Shown: one piece after another, positions 23,066-59,027 of the stretch
How the letters are laid out: every line of letters starts with the position of its first letter
How positions within the stretch are numbered: the stretch's first letter is position 1
DNA from: Paraspadella gotoi
Taxonomy: Eukaryota; Animalia; Chaetognatha
Assembly: GCA_051294375.1 (NCBI GenBank)
Contig: CM119267.1
Span: 7,482,683 to 7,546,682 of the forward strand
Length of the DNA stretch: 64,000 nucleotides
Reading direction: 5' to 3'
Made by a program: the position numbers and the translations under genes
Notes under the pieces: generated by a model
Seen by the model: only the letters and a program-made list of their open reading frames with translations
What the model was told of the DNA's origin: nothing
Database searches by the model: none

Positions 23066-26000
23066 TTAAGAATCGAGGACGGAAAGAATTTTTCTCAAGT
23101 ATTCCTCGTGTCTAACGACATCAAAATCCTCTTCCTCTTCCTCATCTCCCGACGTCCTTCTCATTTTGTAAAGCGTCTCTCGCGCCCTCTCTCGAAAGTC
23201 TGTGCCCTTGACGAGTACGGCGTTCTTGTGCGAGCCCGTGGCCAGCGTCCATAGCACGGCGCAGAAAATGAGCGACGTCTTTCTGGCGACGGGATCGAGT
23301 TCGAGTCTCGTGGCGGCGGCGACGGCGATAGGCAGCAGCCGGCGCGGCAGTGTCAGCAGGGTGGCATTTTTCGAAGAAAAGGAGAGATTGTGAATCACGA
23401 GCGCCGCCTTTTGACGCAATGACCGCGAGGCCGGCGTGGATTCGGGAAGTGAAAAAAACTCGAAGAGAGAGTCGACGCACGCCGTCTGTTGGAGCACCAT
23501 CGCTTGACCCTCAGGATCCAAGGTCAGGTTACAAATAAAGTCCAGCCAAGATGAATTGACTCGGAATCGGCTCGTTGCCTTCTTCGAGGTCAACCGCGCA
23601 AAGTGAGAAACAAAATTTGTCTTTTTGATGACCCCGCGAAACTCGGGAGAGACGGAGGCCATTTTACCTAAAACGACAAAGCAAAGTCGATGATCGGCGG
23701 AATTAGAATCTAATTCCTTTAGTCTAGATGCGTAAGTGAGCAAGGACTGAGCCAAAGAAGTAGTCGGCGGAAACGACACGCGGTTGGAGTCGTTCGAACA
23801 AAGAGATGCTCCGACCAACGTGCTGCGATTGTTGACGATGCAGCGAGCGATCCCTGCCGGATTGTCCGACGCGAAGGCACCGAGAATTCCGAAAAATGCT
23901 TCGTTTAGCCCCGAGTCGATCGACCGCCACGACCAAAGAGACTGTAACATGGCAGACATCTCCGACGACTGTCCGACGTTCTTCGCTTCGGCGCACTCGA
24001 TAAAAAGGTTTTGCAATATGCGCGAGTTTGACAAGAGTTGACACTTGACGCAATCTGAATCTGGCACGGAGCCGTCGGTCGAATGAGCGCCGTTCAAGCT
24101 GTCGACGACCAGGGCGTCGAGGAGACGGTTGGAGTTGTGGATGAGGGATTCGACAAGGCCGAAGTCGATCGCCGCGGATTTGGCGGTGGAGCTGACGGCA
24201 ACGAGGGTTTTGAGGAGATGGCCGGAAAAAGTTTGCAAAGGATTCGCTTTGAGAGGATGATCGAGGAGAGTAGGAATATAGTAAGCATACGTGACCTTTA
24301 GCATCTCGGCGCCGAAAGCTTCCTCAGTCTCCGAACCATAGGGAAGGTCCAACAAGCTGTCGAGTACTTCCAAGCATCTATTGTCTTTACCCATGCAAGT
24401 AAGGAGAGTAGCCCAGAAAGAGAAAAATTGAGTCTGGCGACCACGATCGAGTTTCGCTAAATTCGCAACGAAAAAGTGACACATTGAGTCTCTACTTTTG
24501 AGCAAATCCACAGCGACGACGTAAACTCCGAACATTTGGGAGCGAGAGAGAACGACAATTAACTTCGAGAGAAACGTTAGTAGAGAATCTAAAGTATCGA
24601 GCATGGATGGATGAAATAGGGAGAAACTTTTCTCCAAAAATCCCGAGTTTATCAATTCGCCAAGAAAATTTTTCAGTTCATCGTCCTCCGTAGATGATAG
24701 AAGGCAGTTCAAACAGTTAACGATAGAGTCATACAATTTAGGTAACTCTGTCAATGCTGATCGAAAGAGGCTTTCATCCACGAAAGTCCTTAGAAGACAA
24801 CCTAAAAAGATCTTTTTATCTGATTGATCTAAGGTCAAAAGCTTTTCTTCGTAAATGAAATAGAAGAGGTGACATTTGTATCGATATATGTCCAAGGTTT
24901 TCCTGAGACGTCGGGTCGTTAACAGTTGAAAACTTCTTTCGAAAGATTGAGAAAATAAAGAGCCATCCATGAGGCTGCGGATAGAGCCTCCCGTCAACAA
25001 CGGCATCATAAGCATCAAGCTTTTTAAATTTTCGACGACGACGGTCTCGTCGACTTCCCAGTCGTCCAGCGCAAGATGAAGGACGATTGGGACAAAGTCG
25101 GGACTTTTATGCAGAAGAACAGAAGCCGAGGGTCGAAAGGATAAAATTTGACGAAGAAAGAAGGACATTTTCTCCAGAATCGTTGTCTGACCAGAAAATA
25201 AGATAAGTATCCATCGCCAGTGACTGTCGTCGTCAAAAATGATCTCCGTCCAGAATTCATGGGCTTCTTCCTCTTGAAGATGGTGGTTTAACCAGCAAGC
25301 GGCGACAGAAAGGGCACGAAGGCAGCTTCCGGCAAAGAATAGTCCCGAACGAGAATCTTTGGACTCCTGCGAGTTCGTTGCGCGGCAAAGTATATTTCTT
25401 AGATAGAGACAGAGACGCTTGAGAGCTTCAGCCCTTTCGGGTTCAAAGTCGAAAAAACGTTTCACGATCGTCTGTGCGGCAAACTCCGTTGTCGCTGTCA
25501 ATAGAGGTATCAGGGAAGAGTCGTTGGTGTCCAAACCTGACCCCAACCAATTGACAACGCCCAACAATAGGTCGAAGGAAGGCGTGAAAATGATAAACTC
25601 CAGTAGACAACGGAGAAATCGAGGGGAGACTCGACTTTTCAAACTATTACAGACGAACTGGCAAAACGTCGTAGAAGAAATCGCGGTCGTGACCCAAGGA
25701 ATCTCATCCACATCCTGTAGTCGTAGGCTCAGCGACTCGAGAATAGAAATGGCAAGAATTTCATCCGCTTCGGAGCAAGGAACTGCGCGGAAAAATCTCT
25801 CCAAATCTTCTCCCGCTCGCTCAATCGCTCCAGAATATCGCAGGCGGGGAAGGGCGAGAAAGGTGACGGTTAGAGCCACATCCTCGTGACAAGAAGCGTC
25901 TTTGAGCCGACGCAATAGGGCCGAAATGAATTTATCGACGTCCATCTTCTGAGCGATCAGCTTTTCCGCTTCGGTGTAACTAAGAGGACCAACCTCTTCG

Positions 26001-29000
26001 CTAATTGACGACAAAACGTTCCAACTATGCTTGACTAAGGTCACGGTTCCGTCCTCGTCGAGTCGCCTATTGACGTCTTCCAAATCCAATCTTCGATAAA
26101 TGCTTTTTGCAACGAAGCGCGCCTCAAAGGGCAAATGGAATACGAAACTGAGTTGCACGGGATACTTGGGCCAAAGATCGATGGAAGAAGTCTCAGCTTG
26201 TGAATCATTCTCTAAATCAGAAAAGGCGTAACAAGCTAAGACAACGGAAATGCTGGCAACGACCGAGGAGTTTTCCCTGTATTTGACAGCCAATCTGCAG
26301 AGAGTTTCAACCAATTCCCAGGCTGATTGACTTTTTGAAGTCTTCGTTGGCCATCGTGCGCCATCGCGAAGTCGCATTCGCATCGACTTCCTGGACATCG
26401 TGAGCGCGAAGAGACGCAGAGCGTTGGGAATAACGTCGTCGATGGAAAGTGGCGGAGCGGCGGCGTTATCTACTGCGGCGACATCAGCGAGAACCGAAGC
26501 AAGGATGGCATCATCGGTGATGAGCGAGTCAGAAACTGGTCCTCCCGAAATAATTGCTTGGCAAATCGCCGCGGCAGCTGTGGCGCGAACGTCTGGCGCA
26601 GCCGCAGTGTTAAGGAAAATAGTCTTCACTCTACCGAGGGAGTCTTTGTCGCCGCCAAAAGTTTCGCTTCTCGCAGCAGCGATATCGAAATCCCCGAGTT
26701 GAACGAAGGCGTCGGCAAACGTCTCCAGCTCCACAACCGTCGCAATCCTTAAAAACGACTTCCCGATCTCTGTGACGGATAAAAATCTCCGAATTCCTTC
26801 ATTGCGAAGAGTTTTGTTCTTGGAAAACAAAAGAGCGATAGTCGACTTTAATGCCGAAACGACGGAACAATGCCTAAAATCTAGGAGAGAAACCATCGTC
26901 CTCGAGAATAAGTGCCGGCTGCTTGAAATTCCGATGGCGAAAGGAAGAAGAGAAATCAACTTGTCACGAATCAAATCGTTGAGAAACTGAGACTCGTAGA
27001 GATCTCGACGATCGACGATGAGCGTCAGGATCGTTTCTGCAGCGACGCTGGTGATTGAGTCCGTCATTCCGCCGACAATGATTTCCCGAAGAACGTCTTC
27101 GTCGTCGAGGAGTTTTAACTTTTCCGCGGGATCGAAAGAAGGATTTTCGGCGGCAACGCGAGCGTTTAAAGCTTCTGCAACGACTTGAGAAAGAGCTTCG
27201 TACATCGCCGTCCTAACTGATGTAATCGGATGCGCTAAAAGGCCAAGAAAATCCAGACGATGACGGGAAAACGAAGAGGAAAATATATCCAAAAGACAAG
27301 GCAAAACTTTAACGCGATGCGTGTAGGCTAAATACAGAACAAAGTCGACGGTTTCATCGTCTGCATCCGAATCTTTCAATCGATGATGAGTATTTTCCAA
27401 CTTCGCGCAAACGTCCAAAGCGTGAACGACGTTCCGAAATTCAATCGGCGACGAACGAGACAAAAGCGGAAGCATCATGGTTGAACGGACATTGGCAAAT
27501 GAGTCGTTAAAAAAGGGATCGCGGGCGAGGAGGCAGAGAGCGTTAACGCAGGAAAGCGGAAGTTCGTCTGGAGAGACGGCGAGATCCGTCTCCACTGGCT
27601 TGACGAACAAGTTGAGGAGAGAAGTAAAGAAGAATCCGACATGAACGAAACTCCACAATCGCGAGGCAGAAGGCGGCGTTGTGGTCGTTATATCGCTGAC
27701 CCAAGATAATCGAAGCACCGCGTCGGCTAGTGGAGTCAAGCATCGCGAACCGACGAATGCCAACTCTTCGCGGGTTAATTCGAGAGGCACAGCCGTGCGG
27801 AGGACAGTCGCTGCTTTTTCGAGGATGTGGAAGAGGTCGCGAGCGATGCGAAGAAGTGAAAGATCTTCGCTGTCGTCTTTGCTTAAAAGCGCTGTGGAAC
27901 AAAAATCGTCTTCTCGGGGTCGAAGCGAGTTCGCCAGGCAATGGGAGGCAAATTCAATCAATATGGCGGCGGCGAGAGAAGCGTTGTAGTTTGTACGGGT
28001 TTCTTTGACAACGTTGTATTCATTCCTCTCTGCTATAAGATCGTAAGTCCTGGCTTCCATCTCAACAAGGTCGTCTACCCGGACCATTAGACATTTGGCT
28101 AACTCTTCCACAACGCCAAGAATCCGTTCCATGACGGCCAGATCGCGGCGAGGACTTCCGGTGAGAGAGTTCAACGCACCGAAAATGTCGCAGGATTCCC
28201 TCAGCAAATATTCGATTGGAAAGTCTTTCAGCAAGACATCATTGACGATGTTCAACGCGTCCATCATCCCATCGTTGTTATCGCTCTTGAACAAAGCAAA
28301 CGAGGACCGCAACAACTCTTCATCAACGGGGGATATCCTCTTGGCCGGAGGCAAAATCGAAAACGAGACCAGGATCGGTGCGGGATCATCGATGCTCCCG
28401 TCAACCAGCGAAGAAATTGCAGAACACCGCTGCGGCGAAGCGTCTTTCACTCCGGAGACGAAGACTCCGTCTGAGGAAGAAAGAGTCGCTTCTTTGCCTA
28501 AATTTGGGTCGGTTTCGTGAGGAAGGTAGAGACAAGCTGATGAGCCTCGACATTGAGGGACTTTCATGATGATATTTTGCAGGATTAAGTCGACAGTTTG
28601 AGAACTGGAGGCATCGATATCCATCCGAAGTTCTGAAAAAAAATAGCTCATGGTAACACAGATAAAGAAGCCTTTTCAAAATTCAGATCTGATCTAAACT
28701 CACCGGTTAAGAAATCGATGGCCCCGATTGAAGCCAGAGTCTCACACCCCTGGTCTTCTTTGGACAAACGGAACAATAGATTCAAGGCTTGAGAACGCAT
28801 TCCGGTGGGTGGAAAGTTGAACCACTGGATGGTAAAGTTTAAAATATTTTTTTTATCTACATTAAGAAAATTCGTTAATTTCCTTAATCTTTATTATCAA
28901 TAACAACCTCGTTCGTGGACTATTTATATTTTTGGCGCAGCGTTTCTGAGATTTTATAAGTAATCAATTTATCATTTGAAATTCCAAAATTGCGAAAAAG

Positions 29001-45700: not shown

Positions 45701-48700
45701 CACTGAACCAAATTCTATATGATTTTGCATACAGTATCCCAATGGTCATATTAATGGGACTATAGAGGAAATTTTCAAGATTTCGTGTGAACAATTGCAT
45801 TTATGTCTTAACTTTGTAGAAAAACCATTTTATAATATTCATGAATTAAAATTTATTTTTATTCCTTTGCACTGCAGCGCAAAAAAAAGTAGCCACTTGT
45901 TTCACACCAAGAAAAACTATATTGGATGGCTGAATTTAAAAAAACAAAAAAGTATTGAAAGCTGAAGCGATTGGTCCAAGTCCCAATAAAATCGAGCGAA
46001 GCGTTTAAAAGTTATAGTATGGCAACGGAGGGACATGTGTGATGCCTGGGGTGTGAGGCATCTCCCGACAGCTGGCGCTCAGGGCTTTGGACCTGCAGTG
46101 ACCACCCCATGTCACTGGCGTATTTATGCCGACATTATCACTCTTTAACCAGCGTGACCGTGAGGGGATGGAACCCGGAACTCACGGTTGGTGAATAAGT
46201 ACTTAGCTTTTTCAAGCCAATGGGACGAGTTGAGTTTCACCAAGCTTTGCGGGAGGCGAATTTAGGATTCGCCACAATAAGACAAATTCAGCATCAAATA
46301 TCTGTAGGGATAGGTGTCAACTATTTTTTTACCAAAATAAAATTAAAATAAGTAGGGAAACTATACGGAAAAACAATCTTTTAAAAGTAAGGAAAAAGCA
46401 GTTGAGTTACCCAAGATTACTTTCAAAGCTTTTTCATATCTAAATATTTATTCTTATAGCATTTCGTGTTGAAGCAAACTTTTATATTAACATTTAATTA
46501 TATTAAAACTATTTTTTTCATTTTTGTTATAAAATTACTTTTTGATTTTGTAAAAACTTTAAAAAAATTACTTCTTTTTAATATTTATTATTAGATATCA
46601 TATTTAGTATAAATTAAAAAGCTATTTTATAGAAAAAAATTTATTGCTAACCCTTTTATATGTTTAATTTCATTATGATTTTGTCATTTCTATATTATAA
46701 ATAACAGTCAGAAAAAGAAATGTTATCAATACTAACCTTTGGAAATAACTTTTTCCCAATTCCATTTTGAGACTCTGACTTTAAAGTCTTGCTGTATTAT
46801 ACTGCCTGATTTGGTTCTTTTTTTTTTCACCAATCGATAGCTCTTTAAAAAAGCTATACTTTTTAGATATATTTTTTTCAAAATTAAAAAAGAAATAGTG
46901 GTGTATTTAAAGCTAACTAGGGGCTACTTTTTTTTGCGCCGCAGTGAAAACTTGCTTCGTCCACCATTTTAGATCTAATTTTTGCTCTCCACTCGAAAGT
47001 TCTTATGTTTATGAATGATCCTGGAAATAGAGTGAAAATTGTTTTTTGTCATAATAAATATACTTTTCTGAATAAGTAAACGTTTCTGCAACTGATTAAG
47101 ATAAAAAGTTCAAAAAATTTGTCCGCCGGGGCTGACCCCTGGGGGGCCCATATCTCAGGTCATAGGCCAAATTTTAAAAATCTCCTCAATAGTCCCATTT
47201 CTATTGCCCTAAAATAAATTCATGCAAAATTTCAAGTAGTTTGATCGGAACTGATTCTCGGTTCGAAAAAACAGGAGAGCATTTTTTAAAATGAAGGCTT
47301 CTGTATGGTATCCTCATAAAGACTCCTCATTAAAAAAATTAAAGTTAAAAATATTTTTATAATACACACTCCTCATGCCTCACCCTTCAAACTTGGGTTT
47401 GACTGGGGTGTCGGCACCAGTGGCTACAAGCAATGTCTTGCAAAGGTAAGCCTGTCCGCGTTGATCTTTCATGGTGAACATTCCCTCATTAGTTTTGGAT
47501 TCCACCAGTTGCATGATGCCCCTAATTGTTGTATTAAATTGAACCTGACAGTGAGGAATGAGAAACAATTAATAATTACTACCTTAAGTTATTCTTAATA
47601 TTCTCAATTCAAAAAACCTTAATTCCAAGCTTTTTTTGGTAATCTGCTAAATAATCAACCAGTCTGTCAGCGTGAGGGAACATCTTTCTGGAGTAATGCC
47701 GCATGAGTAGAGAGTCATCATCACTCAGTAAAGAGTTCCAATCATGGCGCAGGTTAAATTCCTGTCATTAAAATTTAAACCTATCTCTAACTCGAATTAA
47801 GACATTTTTTTTTGAGGGATTTACAAGTGCAGTATTTAATTGCTGTACTTGTAAATCCCATAAAAAAATGTCTTAATTCAATTTACCTTACCTGTGCATA
47901 TGATGTCCCTTCAAAAATTATCTCTAACTTATTTAGTAATTTATATTCTAATTGATTGATATAGATTACTAATTATAAATTATATTAATTGATAAATTAA
48001 TATATTCTAAATTAAGATCCTCATGGCCGCCCATACGTTCTCTGCATTATAATAGAACTGTCTTTAACCCACTGATATTTAATCAAGTCGATAGATGCAG
48101 TATTAAGGTAAGCCATAACTCAATAAATACCACTCATCCGCAAAGCTGAAGTAACTCACATTGTTTGTTTTCCCCGTGTTGCGCTTATTAATGGATATGA
48201 GTGTTCGGTGCCGCGGGTACTTGAGATAAAAACTCCCTGGAACATTTGCTCGTTCAAAGATGACGTAATCACGGTTAGCTCTAAATAAATTGGGTATTAA
48301 TTTATAGTAAAAATATATTCAGATGGATAACAAAAAAAATTAAACTTTAGATGGAAATTGTCATACCATCTACACTTCTACAGTTTAATCATTCCACACC
48401 ACACAGCATACATATAATTTTAACAAGTGGCGAATCTTAAATTCGCCTCCCGTATAGCTTTGGTGAAACTCGGCTCGTCCCATTGGCTTGGACAGCTAAG
48501 TACTCGTTCACCAACCGTGAGTTCCGGGTTCAATCCCCTCCCGGTCACGCTGGTTAAAGTATGATGGTGTCGGCAGGCATAAACACGCCAGTGACATGGG
48601 GTGGTCACTGCAGGTCTAAAGCCCTGAGCGCCAGCTGTCGGGAGATGCCTTACACCCCGGGCATCACACATGTCTCCCTGTTGCCATAAACTCTCAGTAA

Positions 48701-49739: not shown

Positions 49740-51042
49740 CATTGAAAACAGTCCTAGGATTAAAAATTTGGTTTGAATAAACTGTAATATAAAATAGAAA
49801 TTTTCAAAGAAACTACACAAGGGTTTAATATGAGATAAATCTCCATAAAACTACATGAAACTTCAATATAGATACATAAAATATACATAATATTATACAT
49901 ACATTAATACATATGTACAAATATGGAAGTGGCAGAGTTATACTTCCAACTATTTAAAATATTATAATAAATAAGTGTGAATCAATACAATTTTCGTGCA
50001 TATTTATACAGTGTGAACAGATCGGATGTAAGAGTAAAAATCACCGGCGGATGGAAGCCCTTCAGCTCATTGACCGGTGCCATTTGTCTCTTGACCAATA
50101 GGAAAGTTCCATTCTGGTTTCAGCGGATTTTACCCGCGTCGCCGATCCGATTTCGATTTTTGATTCCCTGCGATGGGACACAACCTTTATCTAAAAAAAA
50201 AACAAACAAAAACAAACAAACCGATGCATCAGAAATTGTTTAATGAAATATTTTTTATGAATGTAACTGCTCTTTAATTTTCATAAATGCTCCTTATCAA
50301 TTGATATTAATTTATGTTGAAATTCAGATCAGATAATATGACAGAGATAATTTTTTTCAGTTCCCAGTTTTAGAGATTAGCTGCTCTTTGGTGTGGCAGT
50401 ATGACGTAAAACTGCCTTACCACTCTGTTTCAGCCTAATTGAAATGGCTGAATTGGCTTATGAGGCGGGCCAAAATTTATCGCTTTCCATCATTATGATT
50501 TGTTAATACTAAGTTATTTTGTCCTTTAGATACTTAAATCCTTAAAAATCATCATCATCATTCCATAATTTTTATAGTATCCTTTTTATTAGAAAAAACT
50601 CCGTCTGCAATCCGGATGGGCCAGTGCCAATGACACAGGAGTAGTAAAACAAAGACTTGCTTGAGTCGGATGACAGCGTCTTAATCAAAATGAATTAGAC
50701 GATGACTGACGTTCAGGATCCTCATTTTTTTTTCGAGTTCTTATAGAAGATCAATTTAAAAAAACAAAAAATCTAAAGTTGAAAAAAAAATGCGAGGTTA
50801 GAAAATATAGGTAATTATAAAGTTAGTCTACATCCTCTTCAAGCACATCTCTCCTGACAATCACTAATTACTAATTACGTCATGCAAAAGACAACCACCG
50901 CGAGGCTTGTTTTATTTTGTTTTGTTTTATTATTACTACACAACTGTAAAAAAATATATATTTGAAGACGCAGAACAAATTTCTAATTAAAAAAACAAAA
51001 ACAAATTGTCAGAATCATGATAAATCTTACAAAAAAAGGTAT

Positions 51043-52611
51043 TTAGCTACAGGAAGAGTTGCGAGAAACTGCATCCTCCATTAAATGTTGGGTAAAGTGT
51101 TTTCGAGAGGGATAAAAAGAATCACAATTTTGACAAAAATGAATAAATTTCTCGGGACAATGACGATCGTAAATATGTATCTGCAAAGATCCTTCGTTGT
51201 CTCTCAACAATCCGCAATAGTGACAGACACAAAGCCTTTTGTCCAAAACCGTATTGCGAAGAATTTTGACTTTTTCAACGCTGGTGTCTATTTCCGGAAG
51301 CGGTCCTGTTATACGTAAGGCCGTTTCAATAAAAGGTTCAAAGTCATGAACTTGTTTGAAATGGCTTAGTTGATCGGAATCTGCAACTGTATGGTTACAA
51401 ATCCTACATGTCCCCTGTTCGATAGTTATATCATGGATCTTTTTCATATGTTTTATAAATTTATTGTATACATAAGTTCTAAAACAAATGTGACATTTGT
51501 GTCGTAGCACAACTTGGATATTCGAATTGACAGTCATGTTTTCTATCACTGATTCATTGGAAACATTTAATTGATTCGGCTCTAACGTTTGATCTTGCTG
51601 AGCGACAGTGCGAACCACTGATTGAAATTTATGCTTTTTCATCAAATGTTTATTTTCTGACGTTGTGACTAAACCGCAAATTCTACAAGTTTTACCGTCT
51701 ATTATTTTTTGGTGAATGTTGAGGTAATGAGATGCGATTTGGTCGCCTGAAAAGACGTCAAAACACAAGTGACAGCGATACTGCAGATGTTTTGCAAAAC
51801 GAAAGCTGGGGGAATCGATTTGGGATATTTTCGCTAAATGAATCTCAGATGTTTTTGAGTTTTCATCCGATAGCTTGTCGCTTAAAATATCGTTTGAAGC
51901 ATCATTTTCGATCAAAGGTTCTTCAGTGGCTTCGATTTCTTCGAAGTCGTCATAGCTTTCTTCAGCATGGTCATCGGGCATATTAATGTCTAAAAAATCT
52001 AGAGGTTCCTCTTCCTTGGGCGTAACAGAATCGATCAAATCCACAACAGTAGTTTTTTCCTTTGAAGCGGCGGGCCCCTCGAGTTTTAGTCTTTTTGTGG
52101 GACGGTTAACTTCCCCTTCGTTAAAGCTCAACATCGAGGCTCTGTCAATGTTGTTGCACGCGTTTCTAACGGTTTCTTCGTCAAAACGAGGCAAGCCCTC
52201 GTTTGAAGCGGCGTCATTAAAACTATTCTCAACATGCTTGTTTAGCGTTTTTTCATTATTATCGATAGATCGATGGAAATGGCTGGGGAGGCCTAGTTGG
52301 TCCGAAGTATAATTATTGCTAACCGTAGGACTAGGACCTTCATTGGTCGTAAACCCTGAAGAATTAGCGTAAAACTGTGTCTGTGAAACACTATGATAAA
52401 GATGCACCGGGAGGCTTGGGCGAGCAATACCATAATAAGAGGCATTGCTGTTTGATTTTTCTCCTCCATTTTGAAATGGCTCGAATGGTAAAGTTGATCG
52501 TTCCAAAAGAATGTGTTTTTCAGTCTTGAACAAGCTCCAGAGCCCACAGCTTATTTGTCTATGTAGAAGAGCATGAACAGCATTCATAACTTGATCTACT
52601 GAATCCACCAT
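51043..52611 (-). CDS. C2H2-type zinc finger protein, paralog 1 (intronless CDS)
   Basis: 522-aa ORF with six CxxC...H...(H) fingers and an N-terminal motif shared with paralogs 2 and 3. Confidence 0.88.
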   Translation of the reverse strand: MVDSVDQVMNAVHALLHRQISCGLWSLFKTEKHILLERSTLPFEPFQNGGEKSNSNASYYGIARPSLPVHLYHSVSQTQFYANSSGFTTNEGPSPTVSNNYTSDQLGLPSHFHRSIDNNEKTLNKHVENSFNDAASNEGLPRFDEETVRNACNNIDRASMLSFNEGEVNRPTKRLKLEGPAASKEKTTVVDLIDSVTPKEEEPLDFLDINMPDDHAEESYDDFEEIEATEEPLIENDASNDILSDKLSDENSKTSEIHLAKISQIDSPSFRFAKHLQYRCHLCFDVFSGDQIASHYLNIHQKIIDGKTCRICGLVTTSENKHLMKKHKFQSVVRTVAQQDQTLEPNQLNVSNESVIENMTVNSNIQVVLRHKCHICFRTYVYNKFIKHMKKIHDITIEQGTCRICNHTVADSDQLSHFKQVHDFEPFIETALRITGPLPEIDTSVEKVKILRNTVLDKRLCVCHYCGLLRDNEGSLQIHIYDRHCPEKFIHFCQNCDSFYPSRKHFTQHLMEDAVSRNSSCS

Positions 52612-53371
52612 TTTTTATTCTGAAAGTCTCGTTAATTCCTGAAAAAAACATCACGAGGCAAATAAATTCAACGTTTAAATTTCAGGACAACAATTTCTTT
52701 TAAACGAAAAATTACAAATAGTTTTTTATTACATATTTTTGTCAACAGCTTTTTTTTTCGTTCTCCCTTCGGCTTTAACTTTTTCAATTTTTATTTCACT
52801 TCAAGTCAACGTTTATTGAACGAAAAAAATTTTAAAGGCGTGTTTAAAAGAATGTTGGATATATTTGTATAACAATGCCCAATAGAAATAATTGATAATA
52901 ATAATTAATAAACACTACTATATCAGAATTCAGAAAGACAACGAAATTGACTAAGAAAACGAAAACAACAATCATGACGAGAGTGTTCAAATTTTTTAAA
53001 GTTCAAATTTTTTAAAGTTATATGAACCCTCGCATTATTCAATAAAAATTGGATACAATTAAAACTCGATAGCAAAATGGAAACATGCCCGGCCTACCAG
53101 CCCAAGGTCATAGGTTGGATTCCAACAAAAAGGAAAGAGGGAACGAAAGAAAAAGATCAAGATGGAACAAAAGAGTGAGACGGAACGAAAGAGAAAGAGA
53201 TAGAATGAGAAATGTCGGACTCAAATTCTTGAAGAATAACTGAAACTGTCAACATCTCCTAAAAATTACCGCACATCAGAAAAAAAAATTAATGACTGGA
53301 AGAGGTAAACAATTAACCAGACCGTTGCTTATAATGATGGAATTTTATTTCTCTATGGAATTGAATGTTAT

Positions 53372-55381
53372 TCAGTTTTTGGCAATTAAATGGTCAGAAA
53401 AGTGCTTTCTTGATGGATAAAAAGCATCACAATTACGACAGAAATGAATGAATTTTTCAGGACAGTGATTATCGTAAATGTGCATCTGCAAAGAAGCTTC
53501 GCTGTCTAGAAATAATCCGCAATAGTGACAAACGAAAAGAATAACGTCAAACTGTTTTTGGCGCAAGATTTTAATGTTTTGAGCATTGGGGTCGACAGCG
53601 GGAAGCGGTTCTGCCATCCTTAATGGCGTTTTGACAAAAGGTACGAAATCATGAACCTCTGAATAGTGCTTATTCCTCTGAGAATCGGCGATTGGTTCAT
53701 TACAAATTCGGCAAGTGCCTCGAACCACCGTTGAATTATGAGTTTCTCTTAAGTGGTTTATCAATTTTGGGTATGAAAAAGTTTTCAAACAAATATGACA
53801 CTTGTGTCTCACAAAAGTCTTGGATTCGTGCTGTGTTGTTAGATCTTTAATATTTCGATATTTCTGATGTAGGCACGTAGTGTTATGATCATCTGGAAGC
53901 TTAGTTTGATCGAGATTATCGGGTATAGTCGGATAATTATCTGGCGGCTTTTTTAGATCCTGATTATTGGGTATTGTTGTCTGATCCTGATTATCTGGTA
54001 CCGATGTCTGATCCTGATTATCTGGAACCGTTGTCTGATCCTGATTATCTGGAACCATTGTCTGTTCCTGATTATCTGGAACCGTTGTCTGATCCTGATT
54101 GTCAAGCATCGTTGATTGCTCATCTGACATGTTTGCATAATTATGATTTTCTGGTAGTGTTGATTGCTCATGATAATCGAGAAGCGTCGTTAGTTCATCA
54201 TTATCCGTGACCGTTGATAGATCGATATGTTGCATCGTTGCTTGATCATGATTGTCTGACAAAGTTGTTAGTTGGAGATTATCTGCCTTTTGGGTACTTT
54301 CAGTTACGTGGGTTTCTGCTGTTGCCTTCTTACTACTGTTTTTATATTTTTTTATATTCTGATTGGTTGGTAACTTACTGCGAGAAACAACATGAAATTT
54401 ATGACGTCTCATCATATGTTGATACTCTTTCTTGGTGGCTACACCACAAATTCGACAGGTCTTACCATCTATAACTTTCTGATGAATATTCAGGTAGTGT
54501 GTAACTATTTGATCCCCATTACAGATTTCAGAACACAAGTGACACCGATATTGCAGATATCTTGCATGTCTGTACATTGGAGATTGGCTTCTATTTTCTG
54601 GAGGTGAAACTTTCTTACTGCTATTACTTTGCTCATGGATATCGTTTTTATCAATAACCGATTCATCTTTATTTCTAGCATTGGGATTGTGCTCTTCTTC
54701 AGTTTCGTCGTCTGACAAAATTTCAAAGTCTACAAAATCTAGAGACTCCTCTTGCTTTGGCACCACAAATTCAGTCGATTGAACAGTCGTTCTTTTTTTA
54801 GCTGAATCTGAGGAACAAGAACTAGAACTCTGACGTTTACGAGTTTTTGAAATATTTTTTAATTCATTACTAAAGCGCTGTATCGATGATTTATTACTAT
54901 CAGTGTTGGTTTTTGATACATTGTTGATCGAAGGCAAACTACGAGCGGAAGAGCTAATCATCTTCACTTGATTATAACATGTACGAATAAGAGGCTTAAC
55001 AAAACTTTGTTTGGTGAAGCCTTTAAACGAAGTCGCCTCGCTGCTGATTGAAACTGGAAAAGGATTAATTTGGTTAGTCGACGCAGAAAAAGTGCCCCTG
55101 GTTTTGATACCGAGGGGATTGGGATAATTTAGTCGCGAGACATTTAAATAAGGTTGGGCCTGGTTATTCAAAAGTGGAAGATTAAAATTGGGATAGCCAA
55201 CAGGCACAGTTTTCTCCGCAGTTATAAGAGACACAGGTTGTTCCGTCGAACGCTCTAAAAGAACATGTTTTTCAGTCTTAAACACAGTCCAGAGTCCTGA
55301 GGTTATCTGTTGATGCAGAAGTACTCGTACAGCATCCAAAACATGCTCTACAGATTCTGCCATCGTGTCTTTTTGGGCCAT
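53372..55381 (-). CDS. C2H2-type zinc finger protein, paralog 2 (intronless CDS)
   Basis: 669-aa ORF; finger array nearly collinear with paralog 1 (QYRCHLC, DGKTCRICG, CHYCGL, HCPEKFIHFC, FYPSRKHF); internal 9-aa repeats. Confidence 0.88.
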   Translation of the reverse strand: MAQKDTMAESVEHVLDAVRVLLHQQITSGLWTVFKTEKHVLLERSTEQPVSLITAEKTVPVGYPNFNLPLLNNQAQPYLNVSRLNYPNPLGIKTRGTFSASTNQINPFPVSISSEATSFKGFTKQSFVKPLIRTCYNQVKMISSSARSLPSINNVSKTNTDSNKSSIQRFSNELKNISKTRKRQSSSSCSSDSAKKRTTVQSTEFVVPKQEESLDFVDFEILSDDETEEEHNPNARNKDESVIDKNDIHEQSNSSKKVSPPENRSQSPMYRHARYLQYRCHLCSEICNGDQIVTHYLNIHQKVIDGKTCRICGVATKKEYQHMMRRHKFHVVSRSKLPTNQNIKKYKNSSKKATAETHVTESTQKADNLQLTTLSDNHDQATMQHIDLSTVTDNDELTTLLDYHEQSTLPENHNYANMSDEQSTMLDNQDQTTVPDNQEQTMVPDNQDQTTVPDNQDQTSVPDNQDQTTIPNNQDLKKPPDNYPTIPDNLDQTKLPDDHNTTCLHQKYRNIKDLTTQHESKTFVRHKCHICLKTFSYPKLINHLRETHNSTVVRGTCRICNEPIADSQRNKHYSEVHDFVPFVKTPLRMAEPLPAVDPNAQNIKILRQKQFDVILFVCHYCGLFLDSEASLQMHIYDNHCPEKFIHFCRNCDAFYPSRKHFSDHLIAKN
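53945..54105 (-). repeat. Coding 27-bp tandem repeat (PDNQDQTTV)
   Basis: Repeated GTCTGATCCTGATTATCTGGAACCGTT units, in frame in paralog 2, with more degenerate units on either side. Confidence 0.9.
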
Positions 55382-55459
55382 TTTTGTAAGTAATTAATCA
55401 CTATAAAAATGATCAAAATAAGAGGCAATATAAGGCAAAAACAAAAAGTCTGTTATGAT

Positions 55460-56896
55460 TTAATTAAAGGTAACGGAAACATGGCTTTTCAAAGATGTGA
55501 CTGAGGAAAAAAAATTGTTGCAGTGAAGGCAAAGTTGAGTGAATCTTTTATCGGTGTGGAATTTCACGACGTGATTTTGAATCGAATTTCTGCAGCTAAA
55601 GATACGGGAGCAGTAGTGGCACTTGTATCGCGTTTTGCCGGCCACATGACATCTTAGCATGCATTTAGAAAGAAATTTTGGCGCGGTCCCACGCGCACGG
55701 AGCGAGGAACTCTCCGGAAATTCTGTTTTTATTTCCACGGCCCGCTGTATCAATCTTCGACGACGACCGTAAGAAGTTGGCTCGGCTTTGGCTTTTGAGG
55801 TTCGGGGCCGAAGGTCGAGCTTGGAGAGAAACTCGTCCTGTTCTGGATCCACTATTGCGCTAACTGTATCGTTGTTAGAAAGCCGCGAAAGTCGGCTCTT
55901 TTCCGTCGGAGCAGTTTTGTTTTTAGATTCAGTGTTTGGCCGAGAATTGACGTCATTTGTTGCCTGCTGAGTTTTTTCGCTTTTTGTCAGCATTTGCTCG
56001 GGAAAAAAATTGACTGTGGAGGCCGACGAGTGTTTTTTTACGTTTTGAAATTCAGTGCCCACGTTATCGAGTATATCGTTGAGGTCTTTCTCGAGACAAG
56101 AAGTCGTTTTGTGTTCTGTCAGAGCCGTATTAGAGCCGAACTTTGCGTTGCAGAAGAGGCACATTATATTTTTCCTGACCACGCACTTGTCACGTTGTGA
56201 GCGACGACAAGGATGGGACTTCTTCGCTAAGATACGACTGCGCCGAATTTCTCGCGGACGAACCGATATCATAGATCGACTTTTACGCTGAGAAGCCGAA
56301 GCGAAAGACCTCGTTGGCGAAAGGTTCACATCCTTAGGATTCAAACGGATCAAAGAGACTCGTAGAAAAGGTGTCGGGTCGCTCACAGGAGGGACGGAAA
56401 TTTCGGGAAATGAATCTGCAATAAGCGTTTCGGAGTTGCCAGAGGTAGCAGCATCTGCATTTTGGGCAATCGGTGCGTGGTCGTCGTCAGAGTCATTTTC
56501 TTCCCTGGATTGAAGGCCGAACGAAGCCCGCGCAGTTTCAGAATCTAAATAAGGATCATTAAGGTTCGCTTCGTCCGAGAATTCCGAGCCGTGAATTTCG
56601 AACTCTGCGAAGGGAGCGGTGCCTTTGTAGTCCCGTCCGTCGATCATATATTCAGAACTCAGACTGACGCGCGGACTGTTCGGAGATCCCACGCGATATT
56701 CGTTGATGAGAAGACGTTCCTCCTTTGTCGTTTTACTCGAGTCGTCGACAGAGTCGAAAGAGCGTTCGTATCGCTCGAGGATGATATGCTTCTCGGTTTT
56801 GAAAAGACTCCAGGTCCCGCTTTTGATTTTCTCTTCAAGGAAAGTTTCGATGGCGGCGAGTACTTGATCAAAGGAGTCGGTCAACGACTCATTCAT
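55460..56896 (-). CDS. C2H2-type zinc finger protein, paralog 3 (intronless CDS)
   Basis: ATG at 56896 (the ORF track starts at an upstream non-ATG codon); same N-terminal motif; fingers CLFC..H...C, CHYC..HVVKFH and CLHC..H. Confidence 0.85.
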   Translation of the reverse strand: MNESLTDSFDQVLAAIETFLEEKIKSGTWSLFKTEKHIILERYERSFDSVDDSSKTTKEERLLINEYRVGSPNSPRVSLSSEYMIDGRDYKGTAPFAEFEIHGSEFSDEANLNDPYLDSETARASFGLQSREENDSDDDHAPIAQNADAATSGNSETLIADSFPEISVPPVSDPTPFLRVSLIRLNPKDVNLSPTRSFASASQRKSRSMISVRPREIRRSRILAKKSHPCRRSQRDKCVVRKNIMCLFCNAKFGSNTALTEHKTTSCLEKDLNDILDNVGTEFQNVKKHSSASTVNFFPEQMLTKSEKTQQATNDVNSRPNTESKNKTAPTEKSRLSRLSNNDTVSAIVDPEQDEFLSKLDLRPRTSKAKAEPTSYGRRRRLIQRAVEIKTEFPESSSLRARGTAPKFLSKCMLRCHVAGKTRYKCHYCSRIFSCRNSIQNHVVKFHTDKRFTQLCLHCNNFFSSVTSLKSHVSVTFN

Positions 56897-56999
56897 TTTT
56901 ATCAATAAATTAGTAGTATCTCTAAAAAGAAACAACGATCAACAAAAATCCTATCAACAATTATCAACTCTAAATAAAGTCCACTAACTAGTAACTTCT

Positions 57000-59027
57000 T
57001 TAAAATTCCATATATTGAATGAAATATTCGTCCGAATTGACGGAAACATCCTCCATTTCCCCAGTGTTCTTAAGAAAAGTCTCCAAGGATTCCGCCGCCT
57101 CCAGGTATGCCTCCAAATCGGCCACGACGACAGCAAGATCTTTGAGAGTCTCCAGCCTCTGGTCGTCATCCTCGAGAGCGAGTCGAACGAAGTGAGCGTC
57201 GACCACTGAAGACGCCCACGAAAGAATTTTGTCGTAAACTCCTGGAGCGAATCTCGACGAATCGAAAGCGTTCAACATCTGCAAAAGTTGACGAAGGAGC
57301 ACACCCACTTCGTCCTTTGATAAGGTCTTCAAGCTTTTAGTCAAGTCATCCTGGCTCATAGCATAGGAAACGATCTTTTCCAAAATACGCTTCATCAGAC
57401 CCTGGTCGTCGTCCCCAGCCACGCTCATCACACCGCGCCATATACGACACAAATCCGCGGCGCCTGCGCCTTCCTGTTCCAGCGCCAGCAGGATATCGTC
57501 CCAGCGGCGACGCTCGAGCAAAACTTCGATGAGGCGGGTCCAGTCGGAGACGACGGCGACGGAGAGTAAATGCTGAAGGACGGCCGGGGGACAGAAGCCC
57601 TCGACGTCAGCGAATCCATCGACGACGACTCTCAGCATTTCCGATCTCTCCACGTCATTCAAGTTTCTTAACATTGCCACATCGAAAGCGGAAGGGTCCG
57701 ACCGTAAAGCTTTTACGCAATCGTCGAAAAAAGAGGGTCTTTTTTTGCCCCAAAAAGCGGAGGTGGAATGTTGTCGTTGAGAAGATTTTCCAAAGTTGAA
57801 GGAGAGAGTAGAGGCATGTTCTTTGACGGTATAAGGGAAGGATAGAAGTTTTCGACCTAAAAAAAAGCAAATACAAAACGAAATTTGTAACTCGATATTC
57901 GCCAACCGAAGTGGATTTTAAAAATCCTTAATTAGTTTTATTTTTATGTAATAAGAAAGAAGTGTGGGTTTTATATTTTGTTCCATAAAATTTTTTTTGT
58001 TTTACTCGGTCAGACGTAAAATGTTATAAAAGATAACCTCGCAGTCCCCACTTTACTACATCGTCCACGTTTAAATCTTACCATCGACAACGAGTAAAAA
58101 ACTCGTCCCCAAATCGCAACTAATTCCGTCGCCCGCGTCGCCAACGAATTCCCGCGAGGCCAGGATGGTGCCGAACTTCAGTCCGACAACGACGAGGCAG
58201 TTGGCGGCGGGTTGGAGGGCGAAGGCCACGTCGCGGGCGGAGTCGACGTGAAGAAGATGAAGACCCGCGGGGATTTGAACGTCATTGGCAGCGGGGAAGA
58301 CGTTCGGAGCGTGCGGCGCAGAGTCGTCGGCGACCGGAAGGAGGAATTCGATGAGGCGTCCGTCCGCACCAAAGACGCAGACTGATTCTTCTCTCATAAA
58401 AACTCGGGAAAGTGGCGAATCAAAGGATTGCGGCGCCGAAAGTCGAAAGATCGCGGATTTCCCGGATTCGAAGTGAAAAATTCGGCAAGTGAGACGGCTA
58501 GGGTCGGCATCGTCGTCACGGCTGACGACGGCCATTTTTTTCCCATAAAAATCCGACGCAACCGCTCTCGAACTCACTTCAAATTCCATCGCTTCCCGGC
58601 CCCAAAGTTTCCTGATTCTACCCGCCGAGTCTTTGATGGCGACGCCGCCATCGCCAAGAGCAGTCAATGACGGCTTTCCGTCACGGCGTATATGGGGTGT
58701 CCACAAAAGAGTCTTTTCGACCCCATCGCTCAAAGCGGACGCCTCTCGACTCCATTTCCACAGTTCGGCGTCGTCGACGACGGCGAGGAAAGTGGAGACA
58801 AAAGGGGAATCTTTCGAAGAATCAGTTACGCCTGTCGCCGAGCAAGAAAATCGACGAGGTTCGGTAAGAGGGTAATTCCGCGTGATCCTTTGCGACCCTG
58901 TGTCGAATACGGAGACGACGCCGACACAAGTGACGAGTATGTCGCATCCGTAGACGGTGACGCCGAGAATGGTCGGCCGGGAGCCAGAGGTTTCCAACAG
59001 CGCGAAGCTTGGTTCCAGTTCTGCCAT
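57000..59027 (-). CDS. NOL11: Nucleolar protein 11-like (Utp8 counterpart), 2 exons
   Basis: N-terminus MAELEPSFALL...ILGVT...ILVT...LWKW and C-terminal ILSWASSVVDAHF...YFIQYMEF resemble NOL11 termini; divergent in between. Confidence 0.7.

Follow-up and report, generated by a model that had tools for sequence, protein, structure and literature searches.

A conserved N-terminal module, predicted to form a helix and hairpin, in a small C2H2 zinc-finger protein family

Effector and dimerisation domains have arisen independently at the N termini of C2H2 zinc-finger proteins in several lineages; to our knowledge only a handful have been described, and nearly all of these are helical or zinc-bound. 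The ZAD is marked by four conserved zinc-binding cysteines, the BTB/POZ domain comprises about 120 aa, and KRAB represses through KAP-1/TRIM28. C2H2 proteins with N-terminal dimerisation domains, which serve as a precedent here, have been described, and KRAB is a tetrapod-only domain of ~75 aa, with two predicted helices encoded on separate exons, whose DV and MLE residues serve KAP-1 (PMC5509000). FiNZ is a Glu-rich sequence of 28 aa, carried on its own exon in cyprinid fish and found in ~700 zebrafish genes that lie in tandem arrays (PMC10547256).

We describe here three zinc-finger genes that resemble those encoding ZAD, SCAN and BTB proteins (PMC5509000) in having a conserved N-terminal module, a variable linker, C-terminal C2H2 fingers and clustered paralogs. 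Self-association, a property of these 3 domains, is proposed for the present module. The module differs from these domains in being only 36 aa long, in lacking any sequence match to them and in having no conserved cysteines; also, it is predicted to form a helix and a hairpin, whereas SCAN is all-helical with multiple helices, and the 3–6 fingers that its genes encode are dispersed, not clustered in tandem. KRAB resembles it in being short and N-terminal, in having an amphipathic helix and in occurring on C2H2 genes that form a tandem cluster (PMC5509000). Yet a KRAB domain occupies its own exon or exons 5' of the finger exon, whereas module and fingers lie within one uninterrupted ORF in 3 of 3 genes described here, and a hairpin is predicted in addition. 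FiNZ is likewise a short, lineage-restricted, N-terminal ZNF-associated sequence without similarity to known domains (PMC10547256); the present module is set apart from it by description, being longer and neither acidic overall nor located on its own exon, and neither such a number of genes nor such arrays were seen here.

The 3 genes lie on the minus strand of the window, by which we mean the whole 64,000-nt stretch of DNA that was analysed. An earlier note, made from the DNA sequence, had reported 3 similar N-terminal peptides, and these proved to be real, standing at the N termini of 3 stop-free ORFs. Paralog 1 (P0001; 51043–52611, minus strand) encodes 522 aa, with the module followed by an acidic low-complexity linker and then by six CxxC finger sites arranged as three pairs. 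Paralog 2 (P0002; 53372–55381, minus strand) encodes 669 aa counted from its first ATG, a second ATG being present at 55360; it has the same six CxxC sites as paralog 1, and its second linker contains a 9-aa tandem repeat. Paralog 3 (P0003; 55460–56896, minus strand) encodes 478 aa with three CxxC sites, one C2HC-like, one canonical C2H2 and one without the last His. Fingers of the form C-x2-C-x12-H-x3-5-H were recognized by Pfam in paralog 3 (zf-C2H2_4, E 2.5e-6, above cut-off) and by pattern matching in paralogs 1 and 2, where the Pfam finger scores nevertheless fell below cut-off (for paralog 1, zf-Di19 at E 8e-4). With 6, 6 and 3 CxxC sites that are dispersed and partly atypical, none of the 3 proteins has a tandem Kruppel array, and DNA binding by their paired fingers is assumed here and must be regarded as putative. 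Identity over the whole proteins is 41% between paralogs 1 and 2 and 22% between paralogs 1 and 3. As read from the sequence, an in-frame TAA occurs a few codons 5' of the ATG in paralogs 1 and 2, so that the module is truly N-terminal in both. The frame of paralog 3 stays open upstream to 56938, and because of this the gene may have a further exon in that direction.

The module occupies 52498–52605 in paralog 1 (aa 3–38), 55250–55357 in paralog 2 (aa 9–44) and 56771–56878 in paralog 3 (aa 7–42), in each case on the minus strand. The shared N-terminal unit of about 40 aa that the earlier note had proposed is thus real, but its conserved part is about 36 aa: the block ends at residue 38 and gives way to low-complexity sequence. 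Alignment of the 3 copies revealed 16 invariant columns, and paralog-to-paralog identity was 50–64% in the module as against 12–21% in the first linkers. Also upheld was the claim that the motif is kept in paralog 3 despite the divergence of the rest of that protein; relative to paralog 1, identity was 61% in the module, 29% in the C-terminal pair of fingers and 14% in the linker, and the best BLASTP segment between the two (E 3e-12 for the pair) was the module region. For 35 module codons compared by the Nei-Gojobori method, a number of sites that makes the estimates rough, dN was 0.18 and dS 1.15 between paralogs 1 and 2; in both comparisons with paralog 3, synonymous sites were saturated (pS ~1.0) and dN was 0.35–0.42. 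Judged by its codons, the module is under purifying selection, since amino acids have been kept while synonymous sites are near or at saturation. The low dN beside high or saturated dS also argues that the likeness of the modules is due neither to chance nor to recent conversion. One could suppose that the genes are alike simply because they were duplicated in tandem not long ago or have undergone gene conversion, the module having no function of its own. The adjacency of the genes and the grouping of the 3 modules in one clade (support 96/96, from 35 columns only) speak for this view; it is already contradicted by the synonymous sites and by retention of the module in other organisms, described below, and we give it next to no weight.

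The spacers, all on the minus strand, are 103 nt from the stop of a NOL11-like ORF to the ATG of paralog 3 (56897–56999), 78 nt from the stop of paralog 3 to the ATG of paralog 2 (55382–55459) and 760 nt between paralogs 2 and 1 (52612–53371). The two short spacers are T-rich, with an acceptor-like AG ~25 nt and ~20 nt before the ATG, respectively, and in the long one acceptor-like TTTCAG sequences stand ~27 and 9 nt 5' of the start codon. All three start codons have an acceptor-like AG no more than ~35 nt ahead of them. The NOL11 assignment of the upstream ORF derives from a weak match to the C-terminal Pfam family (E 0.011). Ten further neighbours identified by Pfam, MRG, EXOSC1, kinesin, bMERB and WD40 exons among them, are all on the minus strand, but this comes from a biased sample, 19 of the 20 ORFs scanned having been chosen from that strand, with the NOL11 match extra to the count. 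The short T-rich gaps and acceptor-like sites resemble an operon resolved by trans-splicing, such as is reported for nematodes (PMC2749850). We infer that the three genes go back to a local triplication where an operon-like series of housekeeping genes has its downstream end, and the clade formed by their modules is consistent with triplication.

A profile HMM built from the 3 segments, the check that the earlier note had proposed, detected no fourth module in six frames of the window (next E 0.075) but did detect copies elsewhere. Searched against 1.84 billion representatives, the profile gave four matches at E ≤ 0.001, of which P0004 and P0005 carry the module; the other two, P0006 and P0007, consist of repetitive sequence, lack the motif and were set aside. 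A single-sequence search with residues 1–45 yielded no copy among its 2 candidates. P0008, a cluster mate of P0004, and the near-identical P0009 have two tandem modules, 20 residues apart, with net charges of +2 and -4; the called ORF contains no fingers and may be a first exon only. The second profile round scored 3 of 7628 candidates, namely P0009 and the newly detected P0010 and P0011 (E 2e-6 and 1e-5). P0011 is a protein of 506 aa with an N-terminal module and four C2H2 fingers that Pfam recognizes above cut-off. The sequences clustered with P0010 and P0011 agree fully as far as residue 144 and differ from there on, and some further ones begin to match only beyond it. The gene therefore appears to have an intron after that residue, not adjoining the module, and P0011 would be the spliced product. 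In the third round five of 7992 scored candidates came in at E ≤ 10, and all five have the module; two were new (P0023, E 2e-11; P0024, E 6e-10), each with an N-terminal module followed by two finger pairs. Among the matches listed, 3 of the 5 clusters combine C2H2 Pfam matches with an N-terminal module.

Three divergent C2H2 proteins from environmental assemblies (P0011, P0023 and P0024) thus begin with the module. They are 34–44% identical to one another overall, and 75–83% in the module, 56–59% in the C-terminal finger pair and 15–27% in the linker, from which they would seem to be orthologues from different species; the outside members look like a conserved low-copy gene. The window-only profile gave the outside copies 27–36 bits and the outside-only profile gave the window copies 24–35 bits. 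With single scores as modest as these, the proposed link between the two groups rests jointly on the invariant motif, its position and the C2H2 context. The C-terminal finger pair was also considered as proof of orthology with P0011-type proteins and failed its control: window and outside fingers scored 7.7–14.4 bits, no better than finger pairs generally (14.8–23.6 bits). When public contigs were matched to window positions 50000–58000 (8 kb), the sole match on a contig of one organism, B, was 35 nt of the module core (52505–52539, 3 differences), in frame; its flanks, translated by hand, continued in frame and kept F16, E19, I20, G23, L36 and E37. Contigs of another organism, C, gave no match over the same 50000–58000 interval. 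Taken with the profile matches, these observations indicate that the module is present beyond one genome, in other organisms. At least 2 different finger sets accompany it, and one protein has two copies of it in tandem.

Several other searches yielded no copies. The three window proteins are themselves absent from the protein collection searched. The module was found in 0 of 17 stretches of viral contigs, and the ESM Atlas returned no usable match to it, whole P0024 retrieving only generic C2H2 clusters. Short matches at seven other loci, in metagenome contigs and prokaryote genomes, have no helix and were attributed to chance: those at L001–L003 are of 10 residues in alternative frames of integrase-bearing elements, and those at L004–L007, in prokaryote genomes, are of 9 residues inside unrelated ORFs, at 13–23 bits. 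As to the expanded, lineage-specific ZNF family that the earlier note had envisaged, a family reaching into other organisms stands, but expansion on the scale of KRAB or ZAD is conjectural, the window having three copies. When contigs of two DNA runs from the same organism were matched at 80% DNA likeness, a level that diverged paralogs would escape, the modules showed no excess coverage. Run X4, presumed to be RNA, has contigs that extend across intergenic DNA and behaves as DNA.

Alignment of 9 non-redundant copies defined the module further. Every one of the 9 has V8, G23, W25, F28, K32 and H33, positions 5, 9, 12, 16, 20, 27 and 34–36 are hydrophobic, and the hydrophobic moment peaks at 90–100 degrees. 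Cysteine occurs once, in 1 of the 9, and net charge is near neutral (-4 to +2). From ten alignment rows, AlphaFold2 predicted a helix at 2–21 and strands at 25–29 and 34–38 (mean pLDDT 83.6, pTM 0.48); from three sequences only the helix was confident (pLDDT 64), and the residues of the hairpin were modelled as helix at pLDDT ~57–60. The module is thus predicted to fold as an amphipathic helix and a two-strand hairpin, which agrees with the earlier description of an amphipathic helix followed by a motif of the GxW and FKTEKH type.

The earlier note had also held that the module is not KRAB, SCAN, ZAD or BTB, and the profile searches bear this out. Pfam gave no significant family for the 3 window copies or the seven members and recognized nothing in the N termini of the window proteins. 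KRAB had no match at E ≤ 10 in the same 3 and 7 sequences; zf-AD and SCAN had no Pfam match in them, the model being of one helix and two strands; and BTB profiles matched neither the modules nor the whole proteins, the conserved block being of 36 aa. DUF3622 (the best, E 0.013), RuBisCO_large_N and G_path_suppress matched weakly, each in a single one of the seven members, and were rejected. Nothing significant was found among PDB sequences (best E 0.52), and Foldseek gave no match at E ≤ 0.001 to PDB folds (best E 1.9) or to a viral fold library.

The module could in principle be a divergent piece of a known fold, such as the helix and wing of a winged helix, the start of SRP14 or a shrunken form of the BTB N terminus, which it may resemble. 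The weak fold matches are indeed mostly to helix-and-wing pieces of winged-helix domains (Foldseek E ≥ 1.9; VIA, over 48,161 chains, best Z 3.9, rmsd 5.5, 45 aligned). Fragments of MarR, ESCRT-II VPS36 and RPC34 share with the module a helix followed by a beta-hairpin, but no score is significant (Z ≤ 3.9, E ≥ 1.9). A winged-helix domain consists of a three-helix HTH and a wing, and nothing in the module corresponds to the first two of those helices, since it begins at the N terminus. Fold scores of this size would signify neither kinship nor a new fold. The SRP9/SRP14 fold is alpha-beta-beta-beta-alpha, and one of the seven members, but only one, matches positions 7–52 of the 106 in the SRP14 profile, far below cut-off (E 0.096). 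Since conservation ends at residue 38, with low-complexity sequence next, there is no room for the remainder of such a fold; this and the lack of any match at E ≤ 0.001 among PDB folds, PDB sequences or Pfam make derivation from a known fold improbable.

We assign a still lower likelihood to the idea that the core is not a folded domain at all but a short linear motif, such as one that accepts SUMO. The SUMO acceptor pattern is hydrophobic-K-x-E, which FKTE fits, and FKTE is present in 6 of the 9 copies, each of the six belonging to a finger-bearing protein. However, K29 is replaced by T in 2 of 9 and E31 by A or D in 2 of 9, the 20 upstream residues of the helix are conserved as well, as are G23, W25 and H33, and K29 would lie at the end of a predicted strand.

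The explanation that we favour, tentatively and at somewhat less than an even chance, is that in the module a small C2H2 family has an N-terminal domain, conserved and under selection, that acts as a self-association unit through which members pair. The amphipathic helix, with hydrophobic residues at 5, 8, 9, 12, 16 and 20, would extend beyond the hairpin, and the hairpin would be hydrophobic on both faces, with W25, 27, 34 and 36 on one and F28 and 35 on the other, as inferred from strand alternation. A single copy would need a partner because of this overhang and the two hydrophobic faces. We suppose that it would pack against another module of the same kind, pairing family members. Their few, widely spaced finger pairs might then attach to DNA or chromatin more avidly, as happens in ZAD, SCAN and BTB proteins. 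A second copy is favoured as the partner because of the oppositely charged tandem modules in P0008 and P0009, which are as expected of an internal pseudo-dimer, and because of the precedent of ZAD, SCAN and BTB (PMC5509000). A homodimer prediction run without an alignment scored 0.02 and speaks neither for nor against pairing.

Several features argue against self-association. The tandem copies and two-faced hydrophobicity suit a cofactor dock equally well, the near-invariant polar loop (T30, K32, H33 and E37), kept in members that have otherwise diverged, would be more usual if all bound a common partner than if each paralog formed dimers of its own, and the fold model is limited by its pTM of 0.48 and by the helix that replaces the hairpin in the three-sequence version. 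Possibly, then, the module is a KRAB-like effector that docks a conserved co-repressor or chromatin complex through the invariant W..F.T.KH hairpin, a reading that we consider rather less likely than self-association. It is a close rival because the hairpin loop is nearly invariant where the fingers have diverged: across all 9 copies no part is better conserved than the hairpin, exposed polar residues included, and the fingers are less conserved than the module. The N-terminal location is also that of KRAB and FiNZ (PMC5509000, PMC10547256). However, the near-neutral charge is unlike that of Glu-rich FiNZ and KRAB (PMC10547256), and neither a tandem finger array nor an expansion such as accompanies transposon silencing was observed.

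Among the freely accessible papers searched, the six-letter core motif was found in none, and no description of the module was seen. We conclude that the module is real, undescribed as far as searched and conserved beyond one species, and that its function is putative; with further copies and selection found, and no Pfam match, the earlier view of it as a distinct domain stands. It is conceivable, though we would not count on it, that this is a new domain for dimerisation or cofactor docking, made up of a helix and a hairpin and marking a family of zinc-finger transcription factors in a poorly sequenced invertebrate lineage, mobile between finger sets, duplicable within a protein, that lineage's independent counterpart of ZAD and KRAB, and belonging to a larger genome-wide family. 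The significance would be smaller should each genome prove to have no more than a few of these genes. The module is small enough for direct expression, sizing and structure solution, and a 36-residue helix-hairpin module more conserved than its fingers would add a structurally different type, from an unsampled animal group, to the N-terminal domains of C2H2 proteins.

The canonical second histidine after C-x2-C-x12-H was absent from the last finger of all 3 C2H2 zinc-finger paralogs, each on the minus strand (paralog 1, 51135-51043; paralog 2, 53440-53372; paralog 3, 55531-55460), and in paralogs 1 and 2 an earlier-placed histidine was found in lieu of it. In contrast, P0011, P0023 and P0024, which are C2H2 proteins from environmental assemblies that carry the same conserved N-terminal module, have a canonical last finger. 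Two further outside proteins, the near-identical P0008 and P0009, contain within one ORF 2 tandem modules (residues ~92-194), whose net charges are opposite in sign.

Because finger pairs 1-2 and 3-4 are alike in paralogs 1 and 2, with CHxC followed by CRIC (51774-51340 and 54544-53650, respectively), their sequences suggest an internal duplication in these 2 paralogs and not in paralog 3. The second linker of paralog 2 contains 5-6 copies of a 9-residue repeat (~53950-54110, minus strand), and public contigs were broken at 54041-54071, within this repeat region. A 5-residue repeat was observed in the linker of P0024.

High-copy dispersed repeats are located at 50020-50158 and 53212-53258, and over both segments divergent contigs stacked in number in the 2 public DNA runs of the organism. 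Also, we noticed by eye 2 inverted copies of a ~250-nt element (~48430-48690 and 46010-46290), both in introns of a flavoprotein-like gene on the minus strand. The segment from 23066 to 28675 is a single ORF of 1869 aa, possibly rotatin-like, for which no Pfam match was obtained at E<=0.001.

Recognised genes between 3000 and 64000 point the same way, on the minus strand, and some of the intergenic gaps are very short (78, 103 and ~180 nt); this co-orientation, together with the short gaps, constitutes an operon-like layout.
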